A DNA stretch of 64,000 nucleotides, from assembly GCF_041886205.1 (NCBI RefSeq), contig NZ_CP169029.1; one strand, given 5' to 3'. This document shows, piece by piece, positions 30,858 through 53,274 of the stretch. Under the pieces are notes generated by a model. That model saw only the letters and a program-made list of their open reading frames with translations, did no database searches and was not told the DNA's origin. The position numbers were made by a program, and so were the translations under genes. The DNA comes from Escherichia coli. Lineage in GTDB: Bacteria > Pseudomonadota > Gammaproteobacteria > Enterobacterales > Enterobacteriaceae. Within the stretch, counting starts at the first letter, position 1, and the number at the start of each line of letters is the position of its first letter.

Positions 30858-31748
30858 ATGGATGCAAAACAAACGCGGCAGGGCGTATTACTCGCTCTTG
30901 CCGCTTATTTTATTTGGGGTATTGCGCCAGCGTACTTCAAGCTAATTTACTACGTGCCCGCCGATGAGATCCTGACGCATCGCGTGATCTGGTCGTTTTT
31001 CTTTATGGTGGTGCTGATGAGTATTTGCCGCCAGTGGTCCTATTTAAAAACGCTGATTCAGACGCCACAGAAAATTTTTATGCTGGCAGTCTCTGCCGTA
31101 CTGATTGGTGGCAACTGGCTACTGTTTATCTGGGCGGTGAACAATCACCATATGCTGGAAGCGAGCCTTGGTTACTTTATTAACCCGCTGGTGAACATTG
31201 TGCTGGGGATGATTTTCCTCGGCGAGCGATTCCGCCGGATGCAATGGCTGGCGGTGATTCTGGCGATATGTGGCGTGCTGGTTCAGTTGTGGACTTTTGG
31301 TTCACTGCCGATCATCGCGCTGGGGCTGGCATTTAGTTTTGCCTTCTACGGCCTGGTACGCAAGAAGATTGCCGTTGAAGCGCAAACCGGCATGTTAATC
31401 GAAACCATGTGGTTGCTGCCCGTGGCGGCGATTTACCTGTTTGCTATTGCCGACAGCTCAACCAGCCATATGGGACAAAACCCGATGTCGCTGAATTTAC
31501 TGCTGATCGCCGCCGGTATTGTCACTACCGTACCGCTGTTGTGTTTTACCGCCGCTGCCACACGCCTGCGTCTCTCAACGTTAGGCTTTTTCCAGTATAT
31601 TGGCCCGACGCTGATGTTCCTGTTGGCTGTGACGTTTTATGGTGAAAAACCGGGTGCCGATAAGATGGTGACTTTCACCTTTATTTGGGTGGCGCTGGCA
31701 ATTTTTGTGATGGATGCAATTTATACGCAGCGTAGAACGTCCAAATAA
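30858..31748 (+). CDS. rarD: EamA/DMT-family transporter RarD
   Basis: 296-aa ORF MDAKQTRQGVLLALAAYFIWGIAPAYFK..., 10 TM segments. Confidence 0.95.
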   Translation: MDAKQTRQGVLLALAAYFIWGIAPAYFKLIYYVPADEILTHRVIWSFFFMVVLMSICRQWSYLKTLIQTPQKIFMLAVSAVLIGGNWLLFIWAVNNHHMLEASLGYFINPLVNIVLGMIFLGERFRRMQWLAVILAICGVLVQLWTFGSLPIIALGLAFSFAFYGLVRKKIAVEAQTGMLIETMWLLPVAAIYLFAIADSSTSHMGQNPMSLNLLLIAAGIVTTVPLLCFTAAATRLRLSTLGFFQYIGPTLMFLLAVTFYGEKPGADKMVTFTFIWVALAIFVMDAIYTQRRTSK

Positions 31749-31842
31749 AAAATAAATATATTCTGAAAAAATATGCTGACTCTTGCATGAGAGTGGGCAT
31801 ATTGCCATGCTGACAGGAGACTAACACAAGGATGTAAAATTT

Positions 31843-32223
31843 ATGTTACGTATGTTTATCCCAACATCTAACGGTAAGATTTCAAGACGTCAGTATATAT
31901 TTTCATTTATTTTAACAAATCTGATTTGTATCCTGCTTATATCTTTTTTTTCCAATGCTGGCTCAGTATTTTTCGTTTTAATATTTACCATTCTTTTACA
32001 TTATCTCGTCATCAATATGAATTGCCAACGGCTCCGTGATAGTGGTTTCACATATATAAAAACTTATATTTTTAGTACATTAGCCATCTATGTCATCTCT
32101 TTCATCACAATGATTGTCGAACATTTTGACTGTTCCGGTAATGGTCCGATGATTTTTTTGATTTTTTATTTTTCCACCTTTGGCATGTTAGTTCTTGCCC
32201 CTACTGATTCACCCCGCAAATAA
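31843..32223 (+). CDS. yigG: Small inner-membrane protein YigG (function unknown)
   Basis: 126-aa ORF with about 3 TM segments in a markedly AT-rich stretch; position matches K-12 yigG. Confidence 0.8.
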
Positions 32224-32237
32224 TTTATGGAGATTTT

Positions 32238-32618
32238 ATGAGTAAGGATTATATGGAAGATGGTTCATTAACTGAAAAGTGGAAGTACCGCTTTTCTTTT
32301 TATGATGAACATGGGTTCCCTGGATTTTGGGGTGCAAGCCCAGAATATAAGAAAGCATTTAAAGCATTAAAACCAAGACAAAGGATAACAATTCAAACAA
32401 ATATTATTGCATTTTTCTTCTCATGGATCTATTTATTTGTCTTGGGATTATGGAAGAAAGCTATTGTTGTTCTAGTGCTGGCAATATTTTCTTTAATTTT
32501 TGGTTACATGATTGGCTATAATGTATTTGGTTTTATCATCGCCGCTTATGTTTCATACAATACCAACAGATGGTTCTATGAAAAAGAAGTAAAAGGTATT
32601 AATACCTGGAATTTATGA
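32238..32618 (+). CDS. yigF: Small inner-membrane protein YigF (function unknown)
   Basis: 126-aa ORF MSKDYMEDGSLTEKWKYRF... with 2 TM segments; AT-rich; 14 nt after yigG. Confidence 0.8.
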   Translation: MSKDYMEDGSLTEKWKYRFSFYDEHGFPGFWGASPEYKKAFKALKPRQRITIQTNIIAFFFSWIYLFVLGLWKKAIVVLVLAIFSLIFGYMIGYNVFGFIIAAYVSYNTNRWFYEKEVKGINTWNL

Positions 32619-32660
32619 ATAACAGGTGGCTTAGCCAGGCTAAGCCACCGCTCTCGTTTT

Positions 32661-33611
32661 TTACAACCAGTTCTTCCGCTTAAAGTACAGATACGGTGCC
32701 AGGCCCGCGAGTATCATAAAGATAATCGCGCCTGGGTAACCAAAGCTCCACTTCAGTTCCGGCATAAACTCAAAGTTCATCCCATAGCTGGAAGCAACCA
32801 GCGTTGGCGGCAGGAACACGACGGATACCACCGAGAAGATTTTGATAATGCGGTTCTGCTCGATGTTGATAAAGCCCATCGCCGCCTGCATCAGGAAGTT
32901 CACCTTCTGGAACAGAGATTCGTTATGCGGCAGCAGGGATTCGATATCTCGCAGGATTTCACGCGCCTGCTCCAGTTGCCCGCCCGGTAAACGCGCCTTA
33001 CGCACCAGGAAGTTGAGCGCACGCTGGGTATCCATCAGACACAGGCGAACTTTCCAGCCGATATCTTCCAGTTCCGCCAGCGTGGAGAGCGCCTCGTCGT
33101 ACTCATCGCCCTGATGCCCTTCCATAATTACCCGGCTCAACTGCTCCAGATCGCTGTAGATGTTTTCAATTTCATCTGCCAACTGTTCGATTTTGGTTTC
33201 GAACAGATCCAGCAGCAACTCGTAGGCGTTACCGTCTACCATCGACTGGCTACGGGCACGCATACGATACAGACGAAAAGCGGGCAGTTCACGCTCACGC
33301 AGAGTAAACAGACGACCATCACGGATGGTAAATGCCACAGTGGAGTTACCGGCGTGATCTTCCGCATCTTCAAAGAAGAAGAAGGAGTGAATATGCAGGC
33401 CGTCGTCGTCTTCAAAGAAACGTGCCGATGCTTCGATGTCTTCCAGTTCCGGGCGGGTTGCCAGGCTCTGGCCAAGTTCAGATTGTACGCGCAGTCGCTC
33501 GTCGTCGTCCGGTTCGACAAGATCAATCCATACTGCATTTACAAGGGGTTGTGACTCTTCGACTTCCAGCCGGGTCAGTCGGTTATTTTCCAGTTGAAAT
33601 GCGCTCAGCAT
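32661..33611 (-). CDS. corA: Mg2+/Co2+ transport protein CorA
   Basis: 316-aa product from [21 protein letters not shown]... with C-terminal YGMNF motif and 2 TM segments. Confidence 0.96.
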
Positions 33612-33980
33612 GACCGGGACTCCCAATGCTTAAAATATCGGACAGTTCGGTGGGCACACAGAAACAAATTGGGTTTCAGACCATTAAACAGCCTGACTCA
33701 GCGCGACGGGAAAAATTGAGGTCGCTGACAACCGCTAAGGCTATCAGCAAAAAGGGATAGCCTTAGGAGTTGATCCTGGATGACAGGATAGTGAGCCAGT
33801 ATCTACTGGGTGTGTCCAAGGCGAATGTCCTCTTAGAGTGATCGTGCGCGCATGTTACGCCAGCAAAATTTTGCCGTCAACACGCAACAGAACACCACAG
33901 AACAATAGTTGAACTTCGCGCTTTTTGGTACTCGTCAAGGTCGCTAACAGGATAAAAAAATCCCACATCCAGGACCTATA

Positions 33981-34745
33981 ATGGCGCATCGGCTACTCAT
34001 TGGTAAAGGAATGATCACCTTGAATCTCAAACGGATTTTTCTCACCCTCACCTTACTTCCCTTGTTTGCTGTTGCCGCTGATGATTGCGCACTCTCAGAT
34101 CCGACGCTGACCGTACAGGCGTATACCGTTAATCCTCAAACAGAGCGGGTGAAAATGTACTGGCAAAAAGCCAATGGCGAAGCGTGGGGAACGTTACATG
34201 CTCTGCTGGCGGATATGAATAGTCAGGGTCAGGTGCAGATGGCGATGAACGGCGGCATCTATGATGAAAGCTATGCGCCGCTCGGTTTGTACATCGAAAA
34301 CGGTCAGCAGAAGGTGGCGTTAAATCTCGCTTCAGGTGAAGGGAATTTCTTTATTCGTCCTGGCGGCGTGTTTTATGTCGCGGGAGATAAAGTCGGCATC
34401 GTTCGTCTGGATGCCTTTAAAGCCAGTAAAGAGATTCAGTTTGCGGTGCAGTCAGGGCCAATGTTGATGGAAAACGGTGTAATTAATCCGCGTATTCATC
34501 CCAACGTCGCCTCACGCAAAATTCGTAACGGTGTTGGGATTAATAAACATGGGAACGCCGTGTTTTTGTTGAGCCAGCAGGCAACAAATTTTTATGATTT
34601 TTCCTGTTATGCCAAAGCGAAACTGAACGTTGAGCAGCTGCTTTATCTTGATGGCACGATTTCACATATGTATATGAAAGGCGGGGCAATCCCGTGGCAA
34701 CGCTATCCTTTTGTCACCATGATTTCCGTCGAGCGGAAAGGTTAG
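33981..34745 (+). CDS. yigE: DUF2233-family protein YigE
   Basis: 254-aa ORF with N-terminal signal/TM segment; K-12 position between corA and uvrD. Confidence 0.88.
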   Translation: MAHRLLIGKGMITLNLKRIFLTLTLLPLFAVAADDCALSDPTLTVQAYTVNPQTERVKMYWQKANGEAWGTLHALLADMNSQGQVQMAMNGGIYDESYAPLGLYIENGQQKVALNLASGEGNFFIRPGGVFYVAGDKVGIVRLDAFKASKEIQFAVQSGPMLMENGVINPRIHPNVASRKIRNGVGINKHGNAVFLLSQQATNFYDFSCYAKAKLNVEQLLYLDGTISHMYMKGGAIPWQRYPFVTMISVERKG

Positions 34746-49743: not shown

Positions 49744-50940
49744 ATGCTAAAAGTGTTATTGCTCTTTGTGTTGCTGATTGCGGGGATCGTGGTTGGCCCG
49801 ATGATTGCCGGTCATCAGGGTTATGTGCTGATCCAGACCGACAACTACAATATCGAAACCAGCGTCACGGGCCTCGCGATTATTTTGATTCTGGCGATGG
49901 TAGTACTGTTTGCCATTGAGTGGCTACTGCGGCGGATCTTCCGCACTGGCGCGCACACCCGTGGGTGGTTTGTCGGGCGTAAGCGTCGCCGTGCACGTAA
50001 GCAGACCGAACAGGCGCTGCTGAAACTGGCGGAAGGCGATTATCAGCAAGTTGAAAAGCTGATGGCGAAAAATGCCGATCACGCGGAACAACCGGTGGTG
50101 AACTATCTACTGGCTGCCGAAGCCGCGCAACAACGTGGTGATGAAGCACGCGCCAACCAACATCTGGAACGCGCAGCGGAGCTGGCCGGCAATGACACCA
50201 TTCCGGTAGAAATCACCCGTGTACGTCTGCAACTGGCCCGTAATGAAAACCATGCTGCACGCCACGGCGTGGATAAGCTGCTGGAAGTTACGCCACGCCA
50301 TCCGGAAGTATTACGTCTGGCAGAACAGGCGTATATCCGCACAGGTGCATGGAGTTCGCTGCTGGATATTATCCCATCAATGGCGAAAGCCCATGTTGGT
50401 GATGAAGAACATCGTGCAATGCTGGAACAACAGGCATGGATTGGCCTGATGGATCAGGCGCGTGCCGATAACGGTAGCGAAGGTTTGCGTAACTGGTGGA
50501 AAAACCAAAGCCGGAAAACGCGTCATCAGGTAGCGTTGCAGGTGGCAATGGCGGAACATCTTATTGAATGTGACGATCATGATACTGCCCAGCAAATTAT
50601 CATCGACGGCCTGAAACGCCAGTATGACGATCGTCTGCTGCTGCCGATTCCGCGTCTGAAAACCAATAACCCGGAACAGCTGGAAAAAGTGCTGCGCCAA
50701 CAGATCAAAAACGTCGGCGATCGCCCGCTGTTGTGGAGCACACTGGGTCAGTCGCTGATGAAGCACGGCGAATGGCAGGAAGCATCGCTCGCCTTCCGTG
50801 CAGCGCTGAAACAACGTCCGGACGCCTACGATTACGCATGGCTTGCCGACGCGCTGGACAGACTGCACAAGCCGGAAGAAGCCGCAGCGATGCGTCGCGA
50901 CGGTTTGATGTTAACGTTGCAGAATAACCCGCCACAGTAG
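49744..50940 (+). CDS. hemY: HemY protein (TPR-containing inner-membrane protein)
   Basis: 398-aa ORF MLKVLLLFVLLIAGIVVGPMIAGHQGYVLIQTDNY...; starts 2 nt after the hemX stop. Confidence 0.95.
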   Translation: MLKVLLLFVLLIAGIVVGPMIAGHQGYVLIQTDNYNIETSVTGLAIILILAMVVLFAIEWLLRRIFRTGAHTRGWFVGRKRRRARKQTEQALLKLAEGDYQQVEKLMAKNADHAEQPVVNYLLAAEAAQQRGDEARANQHLERAAELAGNDTIPVEITRVRLQLARNENHAARHGVDKLLEVTPRHPEVLRLAEQAYIRTGAWSSLLDIIPSMAKAHVGDEEHRAMLEQQAWIGLMDQARADNGSEGLRNWWKNQSRKTRHQVALQVAMAEHLIECDDHDTAQQIIIDGLKRQYDDRLLLPIPRLKTNNPEQLEKVLRQQIKNVGDRPLLWSTLGQSLMKHGEWQEASLAFRAALKQRPDAYDYAWLADALDRLHKPEEAAAMRRDGLMLTLQNNPPQ

Positions 50941-50950
50941 TTCCTTCTCA

Positions 50951-50981
50951 CCCGGAGGAAAGCACCTCCGGGACCTTTCTG
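50951..50981 (+). terminator. Probable terminator of the hemCDXY operon
   Basis: Hairpin cccggagg-aaagca-cctccggg followed by a T-rich tract, 10 nt after the hemY stop. Confidence 0.45.
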
Positions 50982-51618
50982 ATGCATAAAAAAACGCCTG
51001 CTCTTATTACGGAGCAGGCGTTAAAACAGGTCTGTATGACAACAAGTGGGTGCTTCACTCAACGTTGTGTCCATGGTGTCTGATGAGGCATAAGCGACAT
51101 CTGTCAGTGGACGATAAGCACCGTAAACGGCTCTGCGTCATTCCGGAGTTTATGAGGCACTAAGGCGAACATAAGAGATAGAATGAGCATCTACTCGTTT
51201 ATTATGCCACAGAGAATCGGGAAATAACATCCCTTAACACTTGTTATGAGATAATTCTGTACCCCTCTTTGCTTCCTGAGTAATAACTTCCTGAGTGAAT
51301 ATTTACCCTGAGCTTGATTCTACACATACTCATTATGAATGATAAAATTCATTCAATTAATAACACATATATTAATTGCTGTTAAAACTAAAAACAGCAT
51401 CAATAATCAACGCGATATAATAAACCTGCCTTACATATCAACTGCGCCAGAGGTAGGATTGAAAATGCTCTCCTGATTTTTAAATTCATTTTTGGGATAA
51501 ATAAATAATTTATTTTTATCACTATTATTTATGCAATCATCCTGTCAGGGAGAGGGATCTCAATTATCAATGCTTAATTACGTCATCATTTTGATGACAT
51601 GAAACCGGAGCATTTTGC

Positions 51619-53274
51619 ATGGAATTTTCGTTTTCACCCAAACTTCTTGTTGTTGCTGTCGCCGCCGCTCTTCCTCTCATGGCCAGCGCAGCTGATACCC
51701 CGTCAACTGCCACCGCACGCAAAGGCTTTGCCGGATACGATCACCCAAACCAGTATCTGGTTAAACCGGCGACCACTATTGCCGACAACATGATGCCAGT
51801 AATGCAGCATCCGGCGCAGGATAAAGAAACCCAGCAGAAGCTGGCAGAACTTGAGAAAAAAACCGGTAAGAAGCCCAACGTAGTGATCTTTCTTCTGGAT
51901 GACGTGGGCTGGATGGACGTCGGCTTTAACGGCGGCGGCGTGGCAGTGGGTAACCCTACACCAGATATCGACGCCGTTGCCAGCCAGGGGCTGATTTTAA
52001 CTTCGGCGTATTCTCAACCAAGCTCTTCCCCAACCCGCGCCACCATTCTCACCGGACAATACTCCATCCACCACGGCATTCTGATGCCGCCAATGTACGG
52101 GCAACCGGGCGGGCTGCATGGGTTAACCACGCTGCCGCAGTTGCTGCACGATCAGGGCTACGTCACTCAGGCCATCGGGAAATGGCATATGGGAGAAAAC
52201 AAAGAGTCGCAGCCGCAGAACGTTGGCTTTGATGATTTCCGTGGCTTTAACTCGGTGTCTGATATGTACACCGAATGGCGCGACGTTCACGTAAACCCGG
52301 AAGTGGCCCTGAGTCCGGACCGTTCTGAATACATCAAGCAATTACCGTTCAGCAAAGATGACGTTCATGCAGTGCGCGGCGGCGAACAACAGGCCATTGC
52401 CGACATTACGCCGAAATATATGGAAGATCTGGATCAACGCTGGATGGACTATGGCGTTAAGTTCCTCGACAAGATGGCGAAGAGCGATAAGCCTTTCTTC
52501 CTCTATTACGGCACTCGCGGCTGTCACTTCGATAACTACCCGAACGCCAAATATGCGGGTAGCTCTCCGGCGCGCACCTCTTACGGCGACTGCATGGTGG
52601 AGATGAACGATGTGTTCGCTAATCTGTATAAAACACTGGAGAAAAACGGTCAGCTTGATAACACGCTGATCGTCTTTACCTCCGATAACGGACCGGAAGC
52701 CGAAGTACCGCCGCACGGACGCACACCGTTCCGTGGTGCGAAAGGTTCGACCTGGGAAGGCGGCGTTCGCGTACCGACTTTCGTTTACTGGAAAGGGATG
52801 ATCCAACCGCGTAAATCTGACGGTATTGTCGATCTGGCAGATCTCTTCCCTACCGCGCTGGATCTGGCAGGGCATCCTGGAGCGAAAGTGGCGAATTTAG
52901 TGCCGAAAACCACCTTTATCGATGGTGTGGACCAGACATCCTTCTTCCTGGGAACAAATGGTCAGTCTAACCGTAAGGCCGAGCACTACTTCCTCAACGG
53001 TAAACTCGCTGCTGTGCGTATGGATGAGTTCAAGTATCACGTCCTGATTCAGCAACCTTACGCTTATACCCAGAGCGGATATCAGGGTGGATTCACCGGC
53101 ACAGTAATGCAAACGGCGGGATCGTCGGTGTTTAACCTGTACACCGATCCGCAGGAAAGCGACTCTATCGGCGTGCGCCATATTCCGATGGGTGTACCGC
53201 TACAGACCGAAATGCACGCATATATGGAGATCCTGAAAAAATATCCACCACGCGCGCAGATTAAATCTGATTAA
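51619..53274 (+). CDS. aslA: Arylsulfatase-family protein AslA
   Basis: 551-aa ORF with signal peptide [24 protein letters not shown] and sulfatase signature region ([17 protein letters not shown]). Confidence 0.93.

Follow-up and report, generated by a model that had tools for sequence, protein, structure and literature searches.

The yigG (b3818) and yigF (b3817) genes of Escherichia coli K-12 are two orphan y-genes that are best described at the level of their DNA. The K-12 yigF-yigG segment forms Figure 1 of the 'promoter island' paper, where it is classed as alien and carries non-productive promoters (PMC3661553). An H-NS-repressed intragenic promoter lies inside K-12 yigG (PMC7229825), and a small extended protein-occupancy domain (EPOD) covers yigF-yigG (PMC8282354 and its bioRxiv version). 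The AT-rich, alien, H-NS- and EPOD-covered status of the K-12 allele is already known, and the islet serves as a textbook example in the promoter-island and in vivo protein occupancy display (IPOD-HR) papers. For the gene products, Salmonella yigG mutants show modest attachment, aggregation and chlorine-tolerance phenotypes (PMC3579871). The literature reports no biochemical function for yigG or yigF. Here, the corresponding locus of the E. coli contig NZ_CP169029.1 (assembly GCF_041886205.1) is compared with these paradigms. It was analysed within a stretch of 64,000 nucleotides, called the window below, for which an initial annotation had been made without database searches. Two results go beyond that annotation: the window carries a rare, strongly divergent yigG-yigF allele, and the gap between rarD and corA in which it resides is a multi-state cassette slot. 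The explanation that we favour, with a little better than even confidence, is that a dispensable, silenced operon, lodged in a cassette slot driven by recombination, encodes two inner-membrane proteins that form a heteromer and have an accessory role related to the envelope.

The islet comprises 912 bp (31749-32660) in a segment of the E. coli chromosome with the gene order pldA-yigI-rarD-[islet]-corA-ysgD-yigE-uvrD. The rarD stop at 31748 bounds it on the left and the corA stop (minus strand) at 32661 on the right. Its components are listed by position.

31749..31832, plus strand: 84-nt leader, directly 3' of rarD; kept at 96-98% in yigGF-type and UTI89-type genomes.
31770..31803, not assigned to a strand: conserved hairpin at the left islet boundary; an A6 run precedes it and no U-run follows on the plus strand.
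31843..32223, plus strand: yigG-like open reading frame (ORF), 126 aa, intact, of a rare allele class.
32224..32237, plus strand: yigG-yigF spacer, 14 nt, containing the yigF ribosome-binding site GGAG.
32238..32618, plus strand: yigF ORF, 126 aa, DUF2628.
32625..32660, plus strand: yigGF intrinsic terminator, an 11-bp GC-rich hairpin (32625-32649) followed by a T-run.

The initial annotation had described two polytopic membrane proteins of 126 aa, encoded 14 nt apart between rarD and corA; coordinates, hydropathy and AlphaFold models agree with this description. It had also called the segment AT-rich and atypical in codon usage, and both statements are borne out by calculation. In a windowed GC run, the islet has a GC content of 0.331 (33.1%) versus 0.524 (52.4%) across the 64-kb window, and it is the GC minimum of the whole 64 kb (z = -5.6; all 912-bp segments, mean 0.524, standard deviation 0.035). 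GC content at third codon positions (GC3) is 0.32 in yigG and 0.29 in yigF, versus 0.52-0.69 in pldA, yigI, rarD, corA, yigE and uvrD. Rare AT-ending codons (ATA, TTA/CTA, AGR) are heavily over-represented in both genes. ATA makes up 17-22% of isoleucine codons in the islet ORFs and 0-5% in the flank genes, CTG makes up 11-14% and 23-74% of leucine codons, respectively, and an index like the codon adaptation index (CAI), scaled to the flanking genes, is 0.48-0.50 versus 0.62-0.74. The second-lowest GC stretch of the window (approx. 50940-51620, minimum approx. 0.41 in 912-bp segments) is a 679-bp gap without an ORF of at least 80 aa.

The sample for the E. coli counts consisted of 5,426 complete genomes. 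The islet is at least 80% present in 2,915 of them (54%). The locus clearly shows neither flank-like GC content nor universal conservation, the combination that the initial annotation had named as speaking against its proposal. The window version is 100% identical in only eight genomes (e.g. LHM10-1), whose sources are pig, pigeon, poultry, frog, bear and human; identity to it is 80-90% in 628 genomes and 60-80% in 2,306. The window carries the rarest E. coli yigGF class, and the M24-like and K-12-like classes are commoner. DNA identity of the islet is approximately 89% to the second class (M24, AF23 and others) and approximately 82% to the K-12 class, which is the commonest, with flanks at 97-98%. 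Local identity to K-12 falls to 58-65% within approximately 31850-32620 only, whereas rarD and corA stay at 95-100%. The gene names proposed initially hold at the level of the family; the genes are not the K-12 alleles, to which YigG shows 72% and YigF 75% amino-acid identity.

The depth of this divergence is best expressed by synonymous change. Between allele classes, synonymous divergence (dS) is 0.47-1.2 in the islet versus 0.11-0.17 in rarD and corA, a 4-10-fold difference, and the ratio of nonsynonymous to synonymous change (dN/dS) is 0.12-0.33 for both yigG and yigF. The low dN/dS together with the high dS indicates that both genes are protein-coding and under purifying selection, and that the surrounding core genome is much younger than the classes. 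These values bear directly on the proposal that the ORFs are a functionless relic, i.e. decaying or spurious frames in an AT-rich promoter island whose H-NS cover merely blocks spurious transcription. Promoter islands with non-productive promoters have, after all, K-12 yigF-yigG as their type example (PMC3661553), pseudogenes, insertion sequence (IS) insertions and deletions are frequent, and the Prokaryotic Genome Annotation Pipeline (PGAP) leaves yigG of the window allele uncalled. A relic is nonetheless hard to reconcile with dN/dS of 0.12-0.33 sustained over dS up to 1.2, with frames that are intact in every allele class and most genera examined, with conserved motifs, order and spacing, and with the confident structural model of YigG, and we consider it distinctly unlikely. 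Segment-wise dN/dS gave no segment convincingly above 1, hence no sign of positive selection at that level. The least constrained part is the periplasm-proximal segment of YigG formed by transmembrane helices TM1 and TM2 and the loop between them, with dN/dS up to approximately 1.0 in TM1; the cytoplasmic loop is invariant.

The two genes differ in their history. In the YigF tree, the window and M24 alleles (70-75%) are more distant from the K-12 allele than are Salmonella and Superficieibacter (83-86%), whereas in the YigG tree the E. coli alleles cluster together. Mosaics occur at two levels. Escherichia whittamii combines a window-like YigG with a K-12-like YigF, and the metagenomic YigG variant P0088 has an M24-type N-terminal half and a K-12-type C-terminal half; the latter chimera indicates recombination between allele classes within yigG. 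E. coli holds at least three old yigGF allele classes and, in the O157 type described below, a further, unannotated YigG-like lineage.

As a multi-state cassette slot, the rarD-corA gap shows at least four architectures in E. coli. The fourth is found in 1,431 genomes.

Architecture a: yigG-yigF alone (K-12, window).
Architecture b: yigG-yigF, a 147-nt corA 3' fragment and DUF3289-DUF943 (BL21); Enterobacter E76 has architecture b with an additional 192-nt rarD 3' fragment.
Architecture c: the 84-nt leader and a 58-nt yigG remnant, then DUF3289-DUF943 (UTI89).
Architecture d, the O157 type: a 103-aa membrane ORF on the opposite strand, a 128-aa ORF, a corA fragment and DUF3289-DUF943.

Homology among all cassette types resumes at the corA stop. 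The yigG remnant of UTI89 spans codons 10-28 approximately (L005:4150-4460), and the retention of leader and remnant identifies the UTI89 type as a deletion derivative of a yigGF ancestor. The O157 type lacks the 84-nt leader. Its 128-aa ORF (E. coli O157:H7 TW14359, L004:2208-2594, plus strand) is a YigG homologue with 25% identity (hhalign probability 92.7%, E = 4e-7), and in the O157-type records inspected it is unannotated, only a 99-aa opposite-strand ORF being called. Profile-profile comparison detected no relationship between the 103-aa O157 ORF and YigF. Duplicated corA 3' fragments lie between stacked cassettes in BL21 (L007:2410-2556), O157 (L004:2619-2765) and E76 (L013:5429-5910), and the rarD 3' fragment of E76 (192 nt) is 97% identical to the resident rarD. 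The duplicated flank fragments record the addition of cassettes by recombination via the flanks, and the duplicated corA ends supply direct repeats for gain or loss of the DUF3289-DUF943 cassette. Enterobacter E76 and approximately 2,627 E. coli genomes have that cassette in the rarD-corA slot. Experiments have established that the products of the cassette are a colicin-M-like toxin and the immunity protein against it, a candidate type VI secretion system (T6SS) cargo (PMC11148199; PMC12469244). In E. whittamii, a DUF943 gene (E = 2e-26; L028:4882-5379) comes after yigG-yigF. Between yigF and this gene there is no ORF of 100-199 aa, although no search directed at DUF3289 was made, an arrangement suggestive of an orphan immunity gene. 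The literature searched yielded nothing useful on the rarD-corA slot as a named hotspot.

The company of a validated toxin-immunity pair raises the question of whether YigG and YigF are themselves an immunity or exclusion module. They would then guard the inner membrane against a membrane-acting toxin (a T6SS effector, a contact-dependent growth inhibition (CDI) toxin or a bacteriocin) or a phage, and an arms race or balancing selection would maintain their diversity. Many immunity proteins are small, AT-rich, strain-variable membrane proteins, and the islet products fit this description. The slot houses both the DUF3289-DUF943 pair and, after yigF in E. whittamii, the orphan DUF943 gene; several deeply diverged lineages coexist within one species, including the 25%-identical YigG-like ORF of the O157 type; the E. 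coli YigF alleles are not monophyletic relative to Salmonella and Superficieibacter; and YigG changes fastest in its periplasm-proximal TM1-loop-TM2 segment while the cytoplasmic loop does not vary. Co-location is, however, weak evidence, because a gap between convergent genes is generically permissive for insertion. No toxin gene lies beside yigGF in any context examined or anywhere in the window, and the YigF relatives that stand alone in the Pseudomonas genomes examined have no recognized toxin gene beside them. Comparison of YigG and YigF with DUF943 gave hhalign probabilities below 1%, and neither protein matched a PADLOC or PHROG model. No segment has a clear dN/dS above 1. Immunity genes usually come singly, unlike the strict pairing of two unrelated proteins seen here. 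We regard an immunity role as unlikely, if worth keeping in mind. A more specific proposal has YigG and YigF as the two subunits of a polymorphic module that protects the inner membrane by immunity to, or exclusion of, a phage or a membrane-targeting toxin; balancing selection within a small 'competition slot' would preserve its deeply diverged allele classes, some of them pre-dating the Escherichia-Salmonella split. This proposal seems to us slightly less probable again. The favoured explanation, a silenced accessory operon in a recombination-driven slot, takes the simplest reading of the same data: an ancient, fast-evolving tenant, reshuffled within and between species by homologous recombination via its flanks.

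The pair also occurs outside E. coli. At least five enterobacterial genera have it beside corA, namely Escherichia, Enterobacter, Kosakonia, Salmonella and Superficieibacter. Salmonella Omuna and Kosakonia cowanii are cases in point, as is Superficieibacter, whose yigG is not called and whose spacer again measures 14 nt; in Enterobacter sp. E76 the pair is present with an apparently truncated yigG. Across genera, both genes keep their length of 126 aa and the spacer stays short. In the more distant members that were looked up, a DUF2628 gene directly follows the YigG-like gene in five of five cases, spacing in these genera ranges from a 4-nt overlap to 35 nt, and convergent corA follows the pair wherever the contig reaches far enough. 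One metagenomic lineage has an enolase-superfamily gene as left neighbour in place of rarD, with the corA side kept. A pattern scan of approximately 100,000 species-representative genomes found six loci, namely four Escherichia species, one Superficieibacter and one contaminant contig in an 'Alistipes' metagenome-assembled genome (MAG). The last of these (L030) is E. coli yigGF and likely contamination.

Because a YigG-type gene always stands directly before a YigF-type gene when both frames are intact, the two products probably constitute an obligate two-protein membrane module. The converse fails: YigF relatives with approximately 40% identity are solitary in Pseudomonas and on Pantoea megaplasmids. 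A YigG-linker-YigF fusion modelled from a paired alignment reached a predicted template modelling score (pTM) of 0.66 despite a disordered 30-residue linker, a result that is only suggestive since the five models varied, with a predicted local distance difference test score (pLDDT) of 57-74. Foldseek found no match for the fused model in BFVD.

The constant position next to corA invites a second kind of explanation, in which YigG and YigF would serve a neighbouring transporter, either the CorA Mg2+/Co2+ channel or the RarD EamA exporter, as modulators or accessory subunits. All enterobacterial genomes examined have the pair next to the 3' end of corA, including those with another left neighbour than rarD, and YigG has a conserved membrane-embedded glutamate, E93, and two conserved cysteines. 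The pair is nevertheless convergent with corA and hence not co-transcribed with it, and in BL21-type and E76-type genomes the DUF3289-DUF943 cassette intervenes. The CorA protein is 100% conserved in E. coli against differences of 25-30% in YigG and YigF, so that no co-variation is seen; both corA and rarD are retained in the nearly half of E. coli genomes that have no pair; and the Pseudomonas relatives of YigF are not near corA. A role of this kind is very improbable in our estimation, the least probable of the explanations weighed here. Under the favoured explanation, the module would be an ancient resident of the corA 3' gap between convergent genes.

Old horizontal acquisition, as the initial annotation had suggested, is consistent with the same corA-side position in five genera and with AT-richness in each genus measured. 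GC content of the pair is 35-44% versus 53-57% in the flanks in every genus measured, a set that does not include Kosakonia. Acquisition, if horizontal, would have to pre-date these genera or proceed by allelic replacement, and the data are compatible with either. The window contains no integrase, tRNA, significant flanking repeats or mobile-element genes. The candidate classes of mobile genomic island, prophage and plasmid cargo were rejected, there being no mobile signature in the window and no PHROG match. Carriage of the pair by plasmids or phages was likewise rejected, as the records concerned are mislabelled chromosomal segments or tiny host fragments. Two 'plasmid' records, NZ_OY843411.1 (L036) and K. 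cowanii p888-76-2 (L034), show recQ-pldA-yigI-rarD-...-corA-uvrD, which is chromosomal DNA and likely mislabelled. The tiny 'phage' records OR851002.1 and OR845793.1 consist of host yigF DNA and likely reflect mislabelling or contamination.

YigG is predicted to be a four-helix inner-membrane protein of the DUF805-like type, with both termini in the cytoplasm. Hydropathy and the AlphaFold model (pLDDT 89, pTM 0.80) place the helices at residues 15-38, 42-66, 72-92 and 100-118. In the YigG family, R63 and R65 are invariant and D66, G68 and P120 near-invariant, and the resulting R-x-R-D-x-G motif sits in the cytoplasmic loop after helix 2. A conserved basic and acidic cytoplasmic loop of the form R-L-H/R-D-x-G is what we take to be a hallmark of DUF805. 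The membrane-embedded E93 and the two cysteines mentioned above complete the conserved positions. Against the Pfam profile DUF805 (PF05656), YigG scores 20.2 bits (E = 9e-4), below the gathering cutoff of 25.7, and weak or sub-threshold DUF805 matches were obtained for 10 of 16 YigG-family members (best E = 6.7e-6). Against NCBIfam NF008474 (PRK11371, 'protein YigG'), it scores 201.9 bits and does not reach the 217-bit equivalog cutoff. Judged by its sequence, the window YigG is a homologue of K-12 YigG and not an equivalog under NCBI's rule. For each of the eight carriers of the window allele, the PGAP annotation contains the DUF2628 gene only, the yigG ORF being left uncalled, probably because the NF008474 score is below the cutoff. 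The family is small: an exhaustive HMMER search with the YigG profile found only 29 YigG-like clusters in 1.84 billion representative proteins.

YigF, by comparison, is readily assigned. It matches Pfam DUF2628 (PF10947) with 46.0 bits over a cutoff of 23 (E = 7.3e-12), residues 17-117 aligning to profile positions 9-91 of 93. A charged N-terminal part of approximately 50 aa, predicted to be the cytoplasmic head of an inner-membrane protein, precedes a hydrophobic block (53-108) that WKK splits into two to three membrane spans. Its motifs are KWKYRFxFYD in the N-domain, the YLFVLGLWKK helix and an NxWFYEKEVKG tail; the KW.xRF.F and YL..LGLWKK positions are invariant in an alignment that includes the 40%-identical Pseudomonas proteins. 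Profile-profile comparison detected no relationship between YigG and YigF. Neither protein matched a PADLOC defence-system family at E <= 0.1 or a PHROG phage family, searches of PDB sequences with both family profiles gave nothing meaningful, and structure and sequence searches returned no functional analogue of either.

Both ends of the islet carry structured elements. The hairpin at 31770-31803 has a single-sequence fold z of -3.4 and 15 pairs, three of them with compensatory changes (RNAalifold; Escherichia, Superficieibacter, Salmonella). As an A6 run precedes it and no U-run follows on the plus strand, the U-run belongs to the minus strand, and the element probably acts towards rarD as a terminator or insulator. 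Antisense transcription leaving the AT-rich islet may thereby be kept out of rarD. The terminator hairpin at the other end (free energy -20.5 kcal/mol, z = -4.7) stands back-to-back with the corA stop and forms the right cassette boundary. Between yigG and yigF (32224-32237) there is no intergenic terminator, and a ribosome-binding site of GGAG/GGA type precedes each ORF. Promoter-like sites are in no excess over composition-matched shuffles, and an Rfam scan of 31000-34200 gave chance-level matches only. Upstream of corA lies one further small gene.

33763-33819, minus strand: ysgD/CorL leader ORF, 18 codons, TTG start.

The mechanism that we favour can be outlined as follows. (i) The yigG-yigF pair would be a chromosomal accessory two-gene operon whose AT-richness is maintained and which, judging from the published K-12 allele, H-NS probably holds largely silent. 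(ii) YigG and YigF are most likely translated from one mRNA, and may act jointly as a hetero-oligomeric membrane complex. (iii) Their role, at a best guess, would be a dispensable, envelope-related accessory function; this guess is based on the attachment, aggregation and chlorine-tolerance phenotypes of Salmonella yigG mutants. (iv) The module would evolve very fast in its gap, and be exchanged, stacked and deleted by homologous recombination via the highly conserved rarD and corA ends. (v) The outcome would be several old allelic classes and alternative cassettes in one slot. A number of observations weigh against this outline. Approximately 46% of E. coli genomes are without the pair, so any role must be dispensable. 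The pair is also often broken: yigG is interrupted by a stop in BL21 and apparently truncated in Enterobacter E76, yigF has a stop in E105, and IS1 insertions and deletions occur as well. A consensus scan found no sigma-70-like promoter in the 94 nt upstream of yigG, and the H-NS occupancy data concern the K-12 allele only. The fused models spread over pLDDT 57-74, and contact between YigG and YigF is putative. The Salmonella yigG phenotypes are weak and were only partly complemented (PMC3579871).

The analysis provides a sharper frame for two orphan y-genes: a strictly coupled pair, with YigG as a probable satellite of DUF805 and a T6SS cassette sharing the slot. It also exposes two annotation gaps, the window-type yigG and the 128-aa ORF of the O157 type.

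Comparison with known systems defines the locus from several sides. With K-12 yigG and yigF it shares the slot, gene order, lengths of 126 and 126 aa, AT-richness, leader, terminator hairpin and full-length protein homology. It differs in belonging to another allele class, with approximately 82% islet DNA identity to K-12, occurrence in eight of 5,426 genomes and a YigG under the NCBIfam cutoff. YigF is a bona fide member of DUF2628, above the gathering threshold and with the core motifs kept. YigG appears to resemble DUF805 proteins such as E. coli YhaH and YhaI in its N-terminal SRxxY segment and cytoplasmic R-x-R-D-x-G loop, but it falls below the gathering threshold and belongs to a tiny family of its own, coupled to a YigF-type gene wherever the frames are intact. 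The DUF3289-DUF943 system is likewise an AT-rich two-gene cassette with its own terminator in the rarD-corA slot of other E. coli and Enterobacter; it is, however, unrelated in sequence to YigG and YigF and absent from the window, and one of its partners is a soluble toxin, whereas the islet encodes two membrane proteins. A general feature of E. coli is the presence of 'hotspots', regions of variable content flanked by conserved core genes. The rarD-corA slot resembles them in having alternative contents at one address, exchange via flanking homology, and duplicated corA 3' and rarD 3' fragments. It differs from them in being tiny (0.8-2.6 kb), in having no integrase, tRNA or mobile-element genes, and in contents that include deeply diverged homologous alleles as well as unrelated cassettes.

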